DNA of 64,000 nt from Pseudogymnoascus verrucosus (lineage: Eukaryota), in the NCBI GenBank assembly GCA_001662655.1, contig KV460219.1; one strand, 5' to 3'. Below the pieces are notes generated by a model, which saw only the letters and a program-made list of their open reading frames with translations, was not told where the DNA came from and searched no databases. A program made the position numbers and the translations under genes. Numbering within the stretch: the first letter of the stretch is position 1; each line of letters opens with the position of its first letter. Of the stretch, positions 11,666-20,997 are shown in pieces.

Positions 11666-13414
11666 TTACCGCTGGGCCGGTTGGCTCTCCCCGCTCTCGC
11701 TTCCCGTCGACATCCTTAGCAATGTCGAATTGTCTCCATATGCTACTACTCGGTGGTAATAAGTCTTCACCTATACCGTGATATTAGCGACGAGCTATGG
11801 TAAGTACTAGCTCAGAAAAGTGTTTCGTACCTGGGTTTCCGTCTTGTTAGTCATAAACGTTGCTATCTCGCTCCAATCTGTTCCAAAGTGCCGCAATAAA
11901 GCAGGGAAAATGCTCTGCTCCTGCAGACTCCAATAGCTACTCGTGGGATTCGGATCGGTGTTACGAAAGTCCTTGGAGGGGGGTGTAATCGAAGTTTTAA
12001 TACGAACACGGCGAAATAAAGCCATTTCTTCATCGCCGTCGTCGATAGTTCTCGTCCTCTTCAGCCCAGTTGGCCCTATTTGCTCCCGCTCGACTTCGCC
12101 GGAAGAGAGGGTGTGATCCGTCGTCGAAAAGCTAGATAAAGGTTTAGGCGATATATTAGAGACAAAAGAGTGTCTATAAATCATTTTGCACTTGTGACAT
12201 TCAATGTCCTTGTCCGTTGCAGAATCGCCTTTTAGGGGTTCGCGGCATTTTGGACAATACCAAGTCGAGCGGTAGGTAGAATCGAAAACCAGGCTCATTG
12301 CCACATACTGTCCAGGATAGAAGCACGTTTCCCAAGCCGAGCCAAGATTCACATCTCTATTTGATGCTACATCTGCAATGGCGAATTCGCCCCTTCCGAT
12401 TTTTGCTGCGCCTGTTCCGATGTTCTTAAAATTGTCTTGGAGAACATAGGTAAAAGACTAGACATATTATCTTAGACAAACACTAGCAGACTGAAATATG
12501 GTATAAACGAACCTCTACTGATGTGATGAATTCTAGGAAAAATGGCATTTCCCTTCCTAAAGCGTCAATTAAATACACTGGCTGCTGACGCTCAATCTGC
12601 CCGGGTATTCTAGTAACAATGCTCTGGATATTAAGGACGACCTGGAAGATCCGCACGTTGGTTCTCCTATTACTAAGTTAGAACATAAAGAATATAAATC
12701 ATCTGTTATAAAAACGCACAGGGTTTCTGATGTCATCTCTAGTAACTCTCTCCCCTGCCGTAAGCCACTAAAGATAGATTAGCTGGTGTTGCAAAGAAGC
12801 ACAAGGAGCCCACCTACCTCGAAACATGCTCTAGAACGAGAGATAATCTCTGCATGCACCCAGAATGCAAGTCCTGTACCTTGCCTATTAACGTGCGATG
12901 GTTACCTTCATTCCTCGTGCTACTGATTCTCGTCGCACCCCTAAAATATTAGAACCTTGGCTAGCATAAACATACAAGCAACTCACATTTGCACTGCCAT
13001 TAATAGCATTTCGATACTCTCGGTATGAGCCATCAAATCAGTCTTGAATCTTACTAAGTCCTCCTTCTGGCATAACGCCCATTTGACCTTCCTCCATGCA
13101 TCCTTGATTGTCCTACCACTTCCTCCTGCCCTTAAACTCGGCTGATACTTCGTTATCTTCTCCAAAAATCCATCTATTGTCCTCTGGCACTGTGACGCTG
13201 CCTGCCGCAATGCGATAACCTCTGAGTGCTGCATATCATCTAGTTCGAGTCGTTTTACACGGAGGAGAGCAGTCTCAAGCGTATAAAGCTGTGATATAAG
13301 AGTCTGGTACTCGGTCGAGGAGTTCCCGCTTTCGCGCAAAGCACCAACTACTGTGGATACAAGCTCGACGGCTGCGATAAAATCGCCTGTAGAGAAGCCG
13401 AATCCGACAGACAT
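11666..13414 (-). CDS. Multi-exon chimeric protein: HeLo-like/SesA-type fungal N-terminal domain, fungal ubiquitin-like domain, CxxC/CxxC Zn motif and C-terminal SANT/Myb domain
   Basis: N-terminus MSVGFGFSTGDFIAAVELV..WRKVKWAL is typical of fungal STAND N-terminal domains. Then QQPVYLIDALGREMPFFLEFI..KIGRGEFAI..WETCFYPGQYVAMSLVF, CPKC..CHKC, and SYWSLQEQSIFPALLRHFGTDWSEIATFMTNKTETQ|VKTYY. All introns have canonical splice sites. Confidence 0.8.
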
Positions 13415-13946: not shown

Positions 13947-14929
13947 TTATTCCACCTTGTTCTCCTTGCCATCTCCCTTGGGCTTGACATGTTTCCGCAC
14001 AGTCGCCACCATCTTGCTGAACCAGAAGATGCTCAGAGACATGACTACCGTGTGGGTGCACATGAAGGCGACAGCGACCCACCATGGAGCGCGGTGCTCA
14101 AGCGCCAGAGGTGACTCCGAGAGGGAGTAGTCGTATAGCGTGAATGACGGTCTATCTGCTTGAACCGCAGTAAACACGTCGCCGAAGAAGGTGAAGGTCA
14201 TGTAGGAACCCCAGAGCAGGCGACAGGAGGCAAAGGTGACCATGAGCACGATGCCGTTGACCATCTGGATCTTAGACCCAGCCAGACCCATCTTGCCGAG
14301 GAACCAATGGATGTTTACAAATGGCGTTGATAGCTCTACCAGGCCGTACTGGATGCCATAGTATGGACCGAAAGGCCGCTGTGGGGACAATAATGTATTA
14401 GCATGTGATAACACGAGGAAGCCAAGGAAAGGAAAGAGCGAAGACCACGCACGAATCCCAAAATGGAGATGCAGAACCCGACAACAGCGTGAAGCAGGTC
14501 CAAAGCACCTAGTGTGCTGGCGTTGGAAGCGCAAGTACCCAGGTCCCACATAAAGTAACCGGCGGTGAGAGCATGCACGAGCCCGCCGGCACCCGTGTAT
14601 CCCCATATCCGGTCCTCCCAGGTGGCATTGGCACGTTCCTGGTCAGCCAGGATCACGTATGTCAAGGCGATGGAGAGAAAAGTCGAATTTACAAAGGATG
14701 TGACGTGCATGTCCCATTGAAGCTGTGTCCGCCGGGGTAGGCCACGGTATGTGGCTGGAAACAGACGCGCAGACAGGAACGGTGCTAACACGGAGTTGAC
14801 GGTCGTGTAGAATACGAAACCGAAGAGCACCTCGTGCGCGTGGAGCGGGAGAGTGTTGAGGTGTAGTAGTTCGCACATAGGCTCGAGGGCTGTGCGAAGC
14901 CATAGCGGCGGAGCGAAAGGGTCTAACAT
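13947..14929 (-). CDS. TLC (TRAM/LAG1/CLN8) domain membrane protein, TMEM56/Tda4-like, 2 exons
   Basis: Motifs LPLHAHEVL, WDMHVTSFV, WEDRIWGYTG, GYFMWDL, ELSTPFVNIHWF and RLLWG; multiple TM helices; one intron at about 14379-14452. Confidence 0.88.
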
Positions 14930-15753
14930 CGCGTTCTGTATAGTGTTTCTGTTGTTGTAAGAATAAAGATGTGAAGGCTGGGAGATTAGGTTTCCCGTCC
15001 AGCCACGATCGTCGATTTAGGGATTTGCGACAGGGGTAGTTGACTGGTAAAAGCCTAACTGAACTTCATTTACGCGCTAAATTTTGTTGAAAACCCCTGG
15101 ATCAGGGGCCGCAATCTGTTATCATTGATTGTTTGAATATGGGGTTTCACAAAAGAACAAAGCACGTGATCCAGGCTATACTATGACCGAGACCCCTACA
15201 AAGAGGTTGTGATCACCTCCCAAGGAATACTCGTCATATATCTCTAAAGGCCTATACTTTCTTCTCCGCCCAGAGTTGGAGATTACATGTAGTGTCAGAT
15301 TCCTAGTCTCATTAGCGACGCTGTTGATCGGAAGTTTCGATAGCTAATACTGAGCCATGATAGTCGGTGAATGAATTATCACGACACCGAATTCGTTGTT
15401 GCATCCAATGGACCAAGCCGTTGTTTTCCCTTTAAGGTCGAGGCTGTCAGACGGAGAGTTATTATGCCTGTCTGCCGCCAAGAATGTGGATCAAAGATCC
15501 CGACGCAACCCCGCTTCTACTGTCACGGAAGAATGACAGTTGTACAAAAAATTGAAACGACTCTGTTGAGCTATAAATCACCTTTATTCTTGTCCAGGCC
15601 ATAAAGGTGTACTACCGCCGTTGTCGCCGATTATCGTGACTGCGTTGGCTCTTCATAATTTCTCAGGTGCTACATCAGACTCCGCTCTAACGACGCCGAC
15701 TCCGCTGGCTGGAACCTACTCCGCATTTTGTATACAGGCAATTTCCTTACAAC

Positions 15754-18581
15754 ATGGTGTCTCTTCAAGCTGGTCACGATACTAGACCTCCGGCCGATGC
15801 ATGTAAGATCCACTTTCCCGCATATATTTCATGATATAGAATGGTCAACGTGCATTGCAAAATATGGATGGGTATCTCTCCCAATTCCGAGAATATCATA
15901 CCATTATTTATCATTGGCACCGGGGGCGGGCTGAACTAAGTATATTAAGAGAGTATCTTCGATTTTGTTTTACTCGCAATCGAATACTGATATGTCAATC
16001 AATTTCAGACGAGCATATGATAACTACGTTGTTGCCCATGGACCCAGACCTTGAGATCGAACAACAGACTAGTCAGACCTGGCAGATACAGGACTGGAAG
16101 AAACTGGAAAAGAGAGTATATTGGCCAACCTTCGAATGTGGTGGATCAACATGGTGCGTCATAAATATTACATCCTGATTTGAGCTATGATCATTTATCT
16201 AACTATGCACAGGCGAGTACTAATGTATCCGTCGGGAAACAATGTGGAATTCGTGTCGATGTATCTTGAAGCTGGGCCCAAAATAGACAAAGAAGAAGAC
16301 GATTGGTATGCCTGTGCCGAGTTTGCAATAGTCCTGTGGAACCCGAGCCAGCCATCGAAATATGTTTCAAATGGTAAGCCTCTTCCCATGGCTCGCTATG
16401 ACAAGTTTCATTTGCCTGACGCATATCCAGTTGCCAAGCACCGTTTCCACACGGCGGAAAAAGATTGGGGGTTTACAAGATTCTCACAACTGAAGAGTCT
16501 ATTTGGGGAGCCCGGGGGAGACCCCGAGTCGTTCCTCCTGCAGAACGGAGAAGCCAACATTACGGCCTATGTCCGCGTCTACAAGGACCCTACTGGGGTA
16601 TTGTGGGAAAATTTCTTGAAGTACGTGCACTGTAATGTTACCAGAATCGTTCTGACTTAATATCTAGCTATGACTCAAAGAAGGCGACTGGAATGGTTGG
16701 CTTAAGAAACCAGGGCTCAACCGGCTATCTCAATGTGGTTTTGCAAGCGCTATACTTCATAACTGCCATCCGCAAGGTATACTTTATCACATAATATGAT
16801 CTTTCTTGGGAACTAAACAATATAACTAGGTTGTGTATGAGATACCAACACGGGAGGGTGCAACGACCGACGTGGCGTGGGCACTTCAGCGTCTGTTCTA
16901 CTCTTTACAGACAAGTGAGACGTTTGCTACGACGAAAGAACTCACCAATTCATTTGGCTGGAGCCCAATGATGGTCTTTCAACAGCAAGATGTTGTAGAG
17001 ATGCTTCAAATACTAATATCTCAGCTCATGACAAGGGCAGAAGGGACCCGATCAGAAGACTTGCTGCTAGATCTATTCATAGGCAGGCAACGGTTTTTAA
17101 CATCTAGCGCCAACGATGACCGTGTGACTTCCCGATCTGAAGATCTTTATATTCTATCATTGAACATCCATGGCCAGCGGACTCTCCAAGAAAGCTTAGC
17201 AGAATATGTGAAAGTTGACACATTTAATGCAGGAGCGCAAGATGGACCCCAAGAGATGAAACGCGGCATGATTGTCGACAAGTTCCCACCCATTCTTCAT
17301 CTCCAGTTAAAGCGATTCCAGTACGATATCAGCGAAGATGCCATGGTAAAACTTGACGACTTCTTCGAGTTTCCAGACGAGATAGACCTCAGTCCGTACC
17401 TTGCTGCCAATGCCGACCGATCGGAACCATGGACATATGTTATCTATGGTGTTGTTGCACACAGTGGTGGAATAGCCGGAGGGCAGTACAGTGCGTTCTT
17501 GCGACCGGCCAAAGATGGCCAGTTTTACAAGTTTGATGATGAGAGGGTTACAAAAGCGACATTGAAAGAGGCAATCCACAATAACTTCGGAACAGAAGAT
17601 GGACAGCCATCTAAGAAGCCTACCGCATACTTGCTGATATATATTCGGAAGTCGAGGTTAGGTGACCTGCTTGGAAATTTCACAAAGGATGACGTGCCAC
17701 AACGTATCAGTATGGAGCATCTGAAGCTTTGAGATCGGAAGATGCTAACTGAGACGAAGTGCAAGAACTGACCATAGAAAGCGCGGAAAAGGCCCGTAAA
17801 GCAGAAGAAGAAGAAAAACGGCAGCTCTACGTGGAAATCAGCCTCATTTCAGATGAGACATTTCAACACCACCGCGGCCTCGACTTGTCGACCACCATCT
17901 CAAGCCCAACTGACCTTGCTTCTCCCAAGGCGTATAGTATTCTTGGTGCCGCGACGCTTGCCGAGTTTATCTTGAAGATTGCCGCAGAGAAAGGATTGAA
18001 GTCTAAGAAGATCCGATTCTGGTTGATGGCGAACCGTCAAAATAAGACGATTAGGCCGCAGTACCCTCTCGAAAACCACACTGAGACTTTTGACCAGATC
18101 ATAAAGAAACAGAATATCAACGATCGTAAAATTCGCTTGTATGCCGAGGAAATGGAACCGGAGAAATCCATTTGGCCTCTGAGAGAGGGTTTGAATGGCG
18201 AAATTTTACTATTCCTGAAGCACTATAATCCACTGCAGGAACAGGTACTAGAAGAGCCGATGAGAGGGGTCTGCCATATCTACGTCCGCAAGAATGACAA
18301 AGCTAGCGAACTGTCTGCGCGCATTAATAGGATAATGAATTGGCCGGCCGCGGTGCAAATGATACTATTCGAGGTATTTGTTTGAATCCAAATGCAACGT
18401 CGAAATGCTAATATGCGTTTAATAGGAAATAAAACCAGGGATGACCACGATGATGGATCCCTCTGAAACCTTCCAAGGCTTGGAACTTCAGGACGGGGAT
18501 ATCGTTCGGTTCCAGAGGACTACTGAGTCATTGATACTGTCTTCATCACTGGCCGACAATGTGGCTGAGATCCGTATTTAA
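15754..18581 (+). CDS. USP7/Ubp15-like protein (MATH + USP domain + partial UBL region); catalytic Cys and His substituted, C-terminally truncated
   Basis: MATH domain: FECGGSTW|RVLMYPSGNNVEFVSMYLE..DWGFTRF. Cys box reads GMVGLRNQGSTGYLN and His box reads GVVAHSGGIAGGQYSAFLRP..FYKFDDERV. The UBL region ends ELQDGDIVRFQ. The frame stays open across all canonical introns I traced. Confidence 0.9.
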
Positions 18582-18830
18582 GTACAGGCCGCTGCATTTT
18601 ACCGTTCGATTATTATATTTCATATAACACGGGTTTAAATGTTATGTAACCTCTATATACTACTCACTGATTGAAGATACACCGAAGCCGCTCTCAATGC
18701 TACGCACCCTCTAATTGACAAAAAGTCCCCTAAAATCTAAGCGCAGCACTTCCGCAAGAAGAAGAACGTGAAGAAGTATGGCCTTGATCTGATTTACGCT
18801 TGAGATCTGCTGCTAACCTGTCTGTTTCCT

Positions 18831-20997
18831 TCAATTGTTTCCCCATACCCCGTGGAAACCAAAACCAGCAACAAGTGGCATCCTATGTAAAGGATTAGTA
18901 GGTAATACGTAATACGGGGTGCTGGAATGGACACTTACTCGGCGCGTGCAATCTCCTTCATGTTCTTTGCGTCAATTACAACTAGAACACTTTGTTTGCG
19001 ATTGGCATCAAGTGCCATAGTTAGGAGAACACCGTCATCCTCGCATGTACCTTTTGGGTTGGCAACAAAGACTGGCTCGGAGGGCAGATGGGGTGTGCGG
19101 GGCTTCCAGATAGTTGTCCGTCTTGTGTGTGTATCAACTTTTACGAGGGAATCGGTGAAGAATCCTCGCTCCTTGATGTGGATCCCATAACTAAAGAAGT
19201 CAAGGTTAGCAATGGCCCTAAAAGAAAATTAAATAATTTCACTTACGCATAACGGTAGGGCTTTCCATGGTACGCTTGGTTGAGGCGAGGTAGCTCGATG
19301 TTCCCAGACTTGAAGTCCAATTCAAAGTCGGTAACAGCTGGGCGGGTGATCAACGTGCCATTTGCTAGAGTTCCATGTGCGTAATCTTGAAGCCTGAAGC
19401 GGCGGAAGGTACCTGCAAGGTCATGAGGCGCAGTGGCGTTGTGATGACCAACATATGTACGAAGATTCTTGATCCGAGCGGCTTCAAGGAACGCGTTGGT
19501 CTTCATGACAGGAAGGTCAATGACGATAGACCCATCACTATCCTCAAACGAGTTGATCTATATTCAGTGAGCCATTATCTTTGCCATTGCAGTGATGAAT
19601 GCGATTTACCTCGTGGAATGCAAAAAATGTTTCCGAAGTGTATTTTGCTACAACTCCACCTTTGACTTTGTCGATAACGTCTAGAATAATATTAGCTGGA
19701 AATTAGAATAGGATTTCTGTTTTGGACTCACAAAACAGTGTTTTCCGTTCTGGGTCCCAATCTTTTATGTTGTCCAAGACGTTGTAGTAAGGCTTTGATG
19801 TAACTTTTCCAAAGTCGGATTGCCAGACAATGAGAATGACATAGTTTGCGGTGCTGAACATGGAGTGGATATATGCCGCCGGAGCATCGGTGATAGTTGC
19901 CAAGATGTTACCCTTCCCCGAGGAATTGATTTCAAATACGTTATACTCAGGAGGCGTCACCTCGGTATTCAACATGTAGTTGTAAAGCTCGCCAGACTTG
20001 CCACTAAAAGGGTTAAAGTTAACAAGGGCTGTTTATTAGGTGGCGCCAAGATACGAGTTAGTACATACTGAGCAGGATGCGCACAGGTCTTATCGCCTGT
20101 GATGTTGGTGCTTGTTGCTTGGTAAGTAAACAGTTCAATAGGCTCGAGAGAGACAGGATCTAGTTGCTGGAGAGTACTACCCAGGGGTTAACATCGAAAT
20201 ACTCAAAAAAAGGCCAAGTGCGATGCTTACTTTCCATCTGTGGTCTTAACCAGTGTCACAAATGGCCCGTGTTCAGTCCCTGATACGTTTCTATCCAACC
20301 CTGGGAAATTGGTAATGAAAGATACGGTGACACTGTCAGTGCTGGCATCGCCGACAGGGTTAACCCCATCGCGGTAAGTAGCTATAGCCAGAAGTTAGGC
20401 TCGATACTTTACGAGTATAAAAGCAGCACGTACTCTGAAAGGCACCAAAGATAACTTTGCATGGATCGCCCCCGAAAGATCCACCGGGAAAGAGTCCCGT
20501 TTCCCTGACAACTAAGCAAGTTAGGTCTGAAGCTCTTGGAATTTTGGAACAGACTTACAGTCTTGGAGTTCGTCAGATGCATTGCGGCTATGATAACTGA
20601 CTTTGCCATCTGAAACCTCAAAACGATGGTTTCGACTGAACCCATCAAACCAATGTTCTGCCGTGTAGTTTCCATTATCCCATGTGGCTGCTGCCCCACG
20701 ATACAACGACCCGCTATGGTATGTAAGCTATAAAATCAATTTTAAAAATGGTGCAGAACGTACGAGACCCAGCGAGGAATCTAATAGATGTTAGTATCTT
20801 TAGTATGTTCTTACAGAAACAAAATGATTGAACCTTACCTTTCCTTTAACCTTCAGGTTGACCGACTGCCTTATTTCTGGCGTTCCAAAAAATCCAAGGG
20901 TGAAGGGGTTTGCTGGCGAGTGTTGATGTAGATCAACTGCAGTGCCACTTATTCCCAAGGCAATGGAGGACAATATCAGGAAGGTAGATGTAACCAT
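18831..20997 (-). CDS. Carotenoid cleavage oxygenase (RPE65/CCD family) with an N-terminal hydrophobic, signal-peptide-like segment; multi-exon
   Basis: Motifs HWFDG, ELPRLN and PSEPVFV..EDDGVLL. All four Fe-ligand His motifs are present: TCAHP, YIHSM, FAFHE and GFGFHG. Ends WGNN*. Confidence 0.9.

Follow-up and report, generated by a model that had tools for sequence, protein, structure and literature searches.

What becomes of a deubiquitinase gene that has lost the codons for its own catalytic residues is the question raised by VE01_03889 of the fungus Pseudogymnoascus verrucosus, a gene within 64,000 nucleotides (nt) of contig KV460219.1 (GenBank assembly GCA_001662655.1), the whole of which is called the window here. 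Its predicted product resembles human USP7/HAUSP and fungal Ubp15 (e.g. V490_03572, P0303) in having a MATH/TRAF domain with a DWGF motif, a ubiquitin-specific protease (USP) fold, a coiled linker and the first two ubiquitin-like domains (UBL1-2) with an ELxDGD motif; it differs from canonical USP7/Ubp15 in having Gly where the catalytic Cys should be and Gln in place of the catalytic His, and in lacking UBL3-5 and the C-terminal activating region. On the comparisons set out below, the locus likely encodes a pseudo-deubiquitinase of Ubp15/USP7 descent that is functional and kept by selection.

The gene is read from eight exons separated by seven introns of 47-206 nt, every one GT..AG, and its 2304-nt coding sequence has 0 internal stops; the predicted product is letter-for-letter NCBI XP_018131705.2/OBT97972.2 (VE01_03889, P0001). 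The coordinates of an earlier note, made from the letters of the window, proved exact when the region was read and spliced by script, and its description of an intact reading frame with intact splice sites and MATH domain, of separate losses of the catalytic Cys and His, and of missing distal UBLs and tail holds throughout. The Cys box reads GLRNQGSTGYLN, with Gly201, and the His box reads HSGGIAGGQYSAF, with Gln437. Positions in human USP7 were taken from a phmmer alignment to the full-length protein (E = 4.4e-105), residue numbers being counted on the printed alignment; Gly201 and Gln437 lie opposite C223 and H464, which together with D481 are the catalytic residues of USP7, and Asp454, opposite the last of these, is retained (coordinates in Table 1).

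Among the traits of the USP7/Ubp15 subfamily, the MATH/TRAF-like domain (56.3 bits for Pfam MATH_2, cut-off 32 bits), the USP fold and nesting in the fungal Ubp15 tree, among the pezizomycotine sequences, were found; the complete Cys-His-Asp triad, of which there is Asp454 only, and the five UBLs with the activating UBL4-5 and C-terminal peptide were not. The alignment to USP7 stops where UBL2 ends, at USP7 residue 771, and the protein continues for 25 residues from ELQDGDI to its end. The Pfam profile USP7_ICP0_bdg, complete at 241/241 positions in the canonical Pseudogymnoascus Ubp15 P0303 (1185 residues, aa), is matched over positions 1-149 only in the window protein, and USP7_C2, which P0303 has, was not found by Pfam in the whole protein; its 767 aa compare with ~1100-1185 aa for canonical Ubp15. 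An AlphaFold2 model from an input alignment of 61 sequences has a mean predicted local distance difference test score (pLDDT) of 85.1, and human USP7 structures supply all of its best Foldseek matches in the Protein Data Bank: 5j7t and 5fwi (catalytic domain with UBL1-3) and 2f1z (TRAF and catalytic domain). Against isolated USP7 catalytic domains the Foldseek values are TMt ~0.9 and a root-mean-square deviation of ~2.4 A; the protein is predicted to fold like the TRAF-catalytic domain-UBL1-2 portion of USP7.

The substitutions are shared across the genus. A word-indexed search with the catalytic exon (293 aa) recovered seven Pseudogymnoascus clusters at 68-100% identity, below which the matches fall abruptly to canonical ~1100-aa Ubp15 at <=47%; cluster look-ups supplied further strains, giving 14 full-length orthologs of 702-786 aa. 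The Cys site is Gly in 14/14 and the His is lost in 14/14, with Gln in 12 and Arg in two (P0005, P0130), and Gly201, Asn196, Tyr438, Asp454 and DWGF are invariant across the alignment. No P. destructans ortholog was among the matches of the catalytic-exon search or the cluster look-ups, which is weak evidence for its absence. A metagenome scan with the ortholog alignment gave 7 loci, one of them an ortholog (L001, 72% amino-acid identity); a scan with the single window protein found no relative. Against L001 (Nei-Gojobori, one pairwise comparison, 355 codons) the nonsynonymous and synonymous rates are dN 0.167 and dS 0.718, a dN/dS of 0.23, with 0.26 for the USP part and 0.17 for the linker/UBL1 part. 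The Gly and Gln (or Arg) states and the short architecture are maintained across Pseudogymnoascus by purifying selection.

Spliced sequence was found in run X16, whose source is a close relative of the window strain and whose RNA label is guessed. A 264-nt contig covers 16555-16620/16668-16774/16828-16918, with introns 4 and 5 removed exactly at the modelled GT..AG sites, and a second contig of 248 nt spans 17814-18061, both at a depth of ~2. The former is thin but direct evidence of a spliced transcript with the Gly codon in a close relative; the search for sequencing runs had no RNA sequencing run on record.

Canonical Ubp15 stands beside the dead copy. Canonical Pseudogymnoascus sequences are P0303, P0417, P0416 and P0418 (1170-1201 aa), with partial or fused models in F-4514 and F-4515, and the two kinds occur together in strains F-3557, F-3808, 23342-1-I1, F-4514 and F-4515; the window protein is ~42.5% identical to canonical Pseudogymnoascus Ubp15 over 783 columns. 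A P. verrucosus canonical Ubp15 was not among the 15 of 59 members listed in the P0303 cluster. The earlier note had looked to a dead copy that shares its losses with orthologs under a dN/dS below 1, is expressed, and accompanies a canonical UBP15. The first of these expectations agrees with the 14 orthologs and the ratio against L001. For expression there is a spliced contig carrying GGC, at low depth, under a guessed label and from a relative rather than P. verrucosus; the canonical copy is present in at least five congeneric strains. The 90% cluster of P0303 also has Prp45-like and GOLD-domain proteins, apparently linked to it by way of a fused model of 2048 aa (P0421, F-4515), which would be an annotation artefact.

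Table 1. Coordinates of the gene, its exons, the sites and domains of its product, and its neighbours in the window.
Feature	Position	Strand	Remarks
Whole gene, ATG (15754) to TAA (18579-18581)	15754..18581	+	8 exons, 767 aa; VE01_03889 of P. verrucosus
Exon 1	15754..15802	+	spliced model; followed by 206-nt GT..AG intron
Exon 2	16009..16153	+	spliced model
Exon 3	16213..16373	+	spliced model
Exon 4	16431..16620	+	spliced model; 3' junction confirmed by spliced contig of run X16
Exon 5, Cys-box exon	16668..16776	+	both junctions confirmed by X16 contig; 0 other letters there
Exon 6, most of USP domain including His box	16830..17709	+	spliced model
Exon 7, coiled linker, UBL1 and part of UBL2	17760..18373	+	spliced model
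Exon 8, end of UBL2 and stop codon	18426..18581	+	spliced model
Gly201 (GGC), catalytic Cys position	16723..16725	+	opposite USP7 C223 (phmmer); Gly in 14/14 orthologs
Gln437 (CAG), catalytic His position	17484..17486	+	opposite USP7 H464; CAG in L001 too
Asp454 (GAT), third triad residue, retained	17535..17537	+	opposite USP7 D481; invariant in ortholog alignment
MATH/TRAF-like domain, residues 40-143, spanning introns 2 and 3	16077..16504	+	Pfam MATH_2 56.3 bits; Foldseek 2f1z
DWGF motif, residues 130-133	16463..16474	+	aligns to USP7 164-167, presumed peptide-binding groove
USP (peptidase C19) fold, residues 192-489	16696..17642	+	Pfam UCH 157.8 bits; Foldseek
USP7_ICP0_bdg match (UBL1-2), residues 596-751	18011..18530	+	Pfam, profile positions 1-149/241; Foldseek 5fwi, 5j7t
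ELQDGDI, residues 736-742	18483..18503	+	aligns to USP7 759-765, presumed UBL2 acidic patch
TLC-domain gene, upstream neighbour	13947-15016	-	ORF domain scan
RPE65-type carotenoid oxygenase, downstream neighbour	18935-19557 and beyond		ORF domain scan

An exhaustive phmmer search of 1.84 billion representatives, followed by BLASTP mapping of residues onto P0001, places the window gene as one member of a multi-lineage group of short dead paralogs, wider than the earlier note could see. In the Ajellomycetaceae a short paralog occurs in every sampled genus (Emmonsia, Blastomyces, Histoplasma, Emergomyces, Paracoccidioides, Helicocarpus, Emmonsiellopsis), as well as in an Onygenales sp.; full-length models are 650-840 aa and without USP7_C2 (P0432-P0444, P0153, P0156). 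Their Cys site is Gly, within the motif GSTGYLNV, in 16/17 rows, the remaining row being a fragment that lacks the region; at the His site 13 rows have Arg and the other 4 have Ser. Paralogs such as those of Histoplasma capsulatum (P0435), Emmonsia crescens (P0153) and Paracoccidioides brasiliensis (PADG_00107, P0439) share with the window protein the MATH-USP-UBL1-2 architecture and a GSTGYLNV motif with its Gly, and differ in being ~41% identical to it, in having Arg or Ser rather than Gln at the His site, and in belonging to another fungal class. The same search found canonical ~1125-1160-aa Ubp15 in Histoplasma, Paracoccidioides, Emmonsia and Blastomyces silverae. Related short forms have Asp at the Cys site in Myotisia, with Thr at the His site, and in Trichophyton rubrum, with the His kept. 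The USP7_ICP0_bdg match ends at profile position 149 in the window protein, 169 in Histoplasma P0435 and 163 in Trichophyton P0295 (of 241).

Dead USP7-like proteins were also found in Agaricomycetes: Galerina marginata P0179, Coprinopsis cinerea P0294, Hydnomerulius P0201, Serendipita P0212 and Auriculariales sp. P0178. As in the window protein the catalytic Cys is replaced, here by Gly, Ser or Asp, and the His site is mostly Gln, Tyr or Thr, the His being kept in Auriculariales; Coprinopsis even has the same GSTGY and GGQY motifs. Unlike the window protein they form a separate clade, which argues for an independent origin, and Galerina keeps a long C-terminus (1086 aa). Short USP-only proteins of Talaromyces pinophilus/Penicillium occitanis (P0232, P0424-P0427, P0245; 269-367 aa) have Val at the His site and may be either fragments or a form reduced still further; they and several metagenome fragments join the dead clade in a tree of the N-terminal and USP part under LG+G4, a model more prone to long-branch artefacts. 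Ten separate stretches of a predicted 3205-aa protein, P0144, match the catalytic exon (E = 2.6e-102, 29% identity), so that either USP7-like domains repeated in tandem or a fusion of gene models may lie behind it.

Where the Pseudogymnoascus copy came from was addressed with IQ-TREE under LG+C20+F+G4 with posterior mean site frequencies (PMSF). A 57-row tree gathers the 16 dead rows of ascomycetes into a single clade inside eurotiomycete canonical Ubp15 (99 in the Shimodaira-Hasegawa-like approximate likelihood ratio test, SH-aLRT); in it, canonical Pseudogymnoascus Ubp15 groups with Leotiomycetes and Sordariomycetes as expected, and the basidiomycete dead rows stand separately beside a presumed basidiomycete canonical sequence. 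A careful search of 39 rows gives a dead clade of 12 rows with ultrafast bootstrap (UFBoot) 100 / SH-aLRT 99, and a branch of 100/99 that unites it with Eurotiales and Onygenales and leaves Chaetothyriales outside; the Ajellomycetaceae paralogs and the window protein fall in one clade at UFBoot 100. In approximately unbiased (AU) tests on the 39 rows, forcing the dead Pseudogymnoascus copies with Leotiomycete/Sordariomycete canonical Ubp15 costs 60.4 log-likelihood units (p = 0.00036), and still 43.7 (p = 0.0023) after removal of 46 Cys- and His-box columns, when the dead clade keeps an SH-aLRT of 97. A dead clade that is an older paralog, modelled by forcing 23 crown-class canonical rows (Tuber, Morchella and two outgroup rows left out) into one clade, was likewise rejected (log-likelihood difference 42.7, p = 0.0047). 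Even without the dead rows of Onygenales, the dead clade of Pseudogymnoascus, on a stem of 1.36, is placed in Eurotiomycetes at SH-aLRT 99.

A count of columns, made apart from any tree, points towards eurotiomycete affinity: of the 18 columns at which the Leotiomycete/Sordariomycete and eurotiomycete consensus differ, the consensus of the dead Pseudogymnoascus copies sides with eurotiomycetes in 8 and with the other group in 2, and agrees with neither in the remaining 8. Among columns at least 90% conserved in canonical sequences, dead Pseudogymnoascus and Ajellomycetaceae copies both differ in 10, and at eight of these they have the identical residue (A199S, C201G, S205V, Q328S, L427V, D432G, A435G, V488I). 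Rejection by AU of both an in-lineage duplication and an older paralog suggests, with a long-branch caveat, a transfer into Pseudogymnoascus. On these sequence comparisons we lean, if only a little, towards a single origin in Eurotiomycetidae followed by that transfer; the Pseudogymnoascus copy would then probably derive from a eurotiomycete (Onygenales-like) donor, the paralog being already dead when acquired.

Several points weigh against a transfer or limit that reading. Every dead lineage is long-branched, the tested groups were named only after the first tree had been seen, and without the Onygenales dead rows the leotiomycete position is not rejected by AU (log-likelihood difference 9.4, p = 0.145); the motifs of Coprinopsis, a basidiomycete, indicate that GSTGY and GGQY can converge. 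Composition gives no signal of foreign origin, since the gene, at a GC content of 0.46, does not stand out from its surroundings at 0.44-0.59. The same pseudo-deubiquitinase could instead have arisen by duplication of Pseudogymnoascus' own UBP15, its Onygenales likeness being convergence and long-branch attraction. The very long stem, the AU result without the Onygenales rows and the Coprinopsis motifs all speak for such an origin, which is a serious but lesser possibility; set against it are the AU rejections with those rows present, before and after removal of the box columns, the eurotiomycete placement of the dead Pseudogymnoascus clade on its own, the 8 to 2 division of the diagnostic columns, and truncation at the same place of USP7_ICP0_bdg in the window, Histoplasma and Trichophyton proteins. 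A paper on the swainsonine cluster (PMC9030584) was considered as a precedent for exchange between Onygenales and Pseudogymnoascus and set aside: there the Pseudogymnoascus cluster groups with other orders.

What the protein does was approached through what it has kept. Of the columns that reach 90% conservation or more among 28 canonical ascomycete Ubp15 sequences, the dead Pseudogymnoascus copies retain 41/53 in MATH, 109/179 in USP, 11/14 in UBL1 and 15/26 in UBL2; the corresponding figures for the dead Ajellomycetaceae copies are 41/53, 95/179, 10/14 and 16/26. Over 61 dead and canonical sequences DWGF is at least 90% conserved, and in ELQDGD Gly740 and Asp741 are invariant and Glu736 at least 90% conserved, I742 being conserved too. 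We take DWGF to be the USP7 groove for P/A/E-x-x-S motifs and ELxDGD the acidic patch that binds K-x-x-x-K. Since these two are the best-kept canonical features and many USP positions are changed, the protein is most likely a non-catalytic binder of Ubp15's short-motif clients through MATH and UBL2. The nucleophile Cys and general-base His are replaced, and UBL3-5 and the C-terminal module are missing; with Cys and His both gone, thiol-protease activity should be impossible. In the proposed mechanism the MATH and UBL2 docking sites would bind the same partners as those of Ubp15; the protein would either compete for Ubp15's clients or serve them as an adaptor, and its USP fold would be chiefly a structural core. 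The roles that the earlier note proposed, a substrate- or ubiquitin-binding scaffold, a dominant-negative regulator of Ubp15 or a decoy, likewise keep the standing of inferences. A fuller scenario, offered tentatively, is that the dead family arose once in Eurotiomycetidae with loss of Cys, His and C-terminus, was kept in Ajellomycetaceae, was transferred dead into Pseudogymnoascus, and is expressed and selected there to tune Ubp15's access to its MATH and UBL2 clients.

A selectively maintained, functional pseudoenzyme has points against it that should be weighed together. Its expression is seen in two shallow contigs of a relative, from a run with a guessed label, and its dN/dS comes from a single pair at a dS of 0.72. 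Between strains F-3557 and 23342-1-I1 the dead copies are 69.4% identical, as against 90.1% for canonical Ubp15; this ~3x faster amino-acid divergence indicates relaxed constraint. The run at residues 304-326, conserved in canonical sequences and presumably the ubiquitin-contacting fingers subdomain of USP7, is replaced and is variable even between orthologs, so that ubiquitin binding may be lost. Statements on activity, ubiquitin binding and partners rest on sequence and model.

A ubiquitin-binding role is possible but less supported. The USP domain might still bind ubiquitin, making the protein a ubiquitin reader or a shield against deubiquitinases (DUBs) and the proteasome, rather than one that works through MATH/UBL docking; we consider this rather unlikely. 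The USP fold, modelled with high confidence, can be superposed on catalytic domains of USP7 with ubiquitin bound (5kye, 1nbf; TMt ~0.9), 12 orthologs share 49% of USP positions without any change, and N196 is invariant in 61/61 sequences and Y438 and D454 are at least 90% conserved there, D454 being invariant in the 14 orthologs. However, the canonical columns are less well kept in USP than in MATH, and the replaced run at 304-326, if it does correspond to the fingers, falls where ubiquitin would be contacted. Docking through MATH and UBL2 remains the preferred role.

Hydrolase activity might also be retained by means of other, non-canonical residues, a case that has been made for USP39 and USP52; this is very improbable for the window protein. 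In the review PMC10919355, USP39/Sad1 and USP52/PAN2 are described as having a USP fold without catalytic residues and as non-catalytic scaffolds in larger complexes, and their inactivity is itself debated, USP52 and possibly USP39 having first been classed as pseudo-DUBs and since reconsidered. Those proteins belong to unrelated USP subfamilies with other accessory domains and are ancient and universal, whereas the window paralog derives from USP7 and is restricted to certain lineages. One of the shared derived residues, Ser199, lies two positions ahead of the lost Cys and might be thought a substitute; but nucleophile and general base are both gone, and the His site varies among dead paralogs (Gln, Arg, Ser, Thr), which is not what a conserved stand-in for the catalytic residue would show. 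Also absent are the activating UBL4-5 and the tail; according to the same review the USP7 catalytic domain alone is minimally active and needs UBL4-5, other UBLs mediating partner binding. That the locus is a decaying pseudogene or an assembly or sequencing error, for which its fast amino-acid evolution might be cited, can be set aside given the open frame and same architecture in 14 independently assembled orthologs, the low dN/dS, the Gly codon in the spliced contig, and contigs of other runs that cover the locus, neither codon being among the 40 of 355 differences listed.

The open-access literature searched contained neither an account of a dead USP7/Ubp15 paralog nor a paper that names VE01_03889, PADG_00107, EMCG_06855 or PAAG_11336; pseudo-DUBs are an already recognised class, and as far as that literature goes a USP7-derived one is new here. 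Public databases label these proteins as hypothetical protein, "ubiquitinyl hydrolase 1" or "ubiquitin carboxyl-terminal hydrolase", and the hydrolase labels of the family are probably wrong. USP7/Ubp15 is a hub among deubiquitinases and owes its specificity to the docking sites of its MATH and UBL domains, and a natural variant that has those sites but should be unable to cleave ubiquitin amounts to a substrate trap produced by evolution; the family could reveal sets of Ubp15 clients and a new layer of DUB regulation. It is conserved in medically important Onygenales, including the dimorphic human pathogens of the Ajellomycetaceae, with related forms in dermatophytes. The inter-class transfer, if true, would be an unusual horizontal transfer of a regulatory pseudoenzyme, not of a metabolic gene.

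Contigs of related strains differ from the window at 96 of 2737 letters (3.5%) over 15964-18700. Run X4 has two contigs over the gene (15969-18397), one ~3.5% diverged like that of X3 and the other ~20% diverged with replaced blocks, so that this sample holds two strains or two copies. Intron 1 (15803-16008) is unusually long at 206 nt, the other six being 47-59 nt, and its interior (15850-15964) is represented in three related runs by sequence of the same length, too diverged to align at 80% likeness. The neighbouring genes (Table 1) are ordinary, and no mobile element was seen among the scanned neighbouring open reading frames (ORFs). An ORF piece on the minus strand at 11807-12454, ~3.3 kb upstream of the dead-DUB gene, has a ULD_2 ubiquitin-like domain and a Myb DNA-binding domain and is probably a coincidental neighbour.

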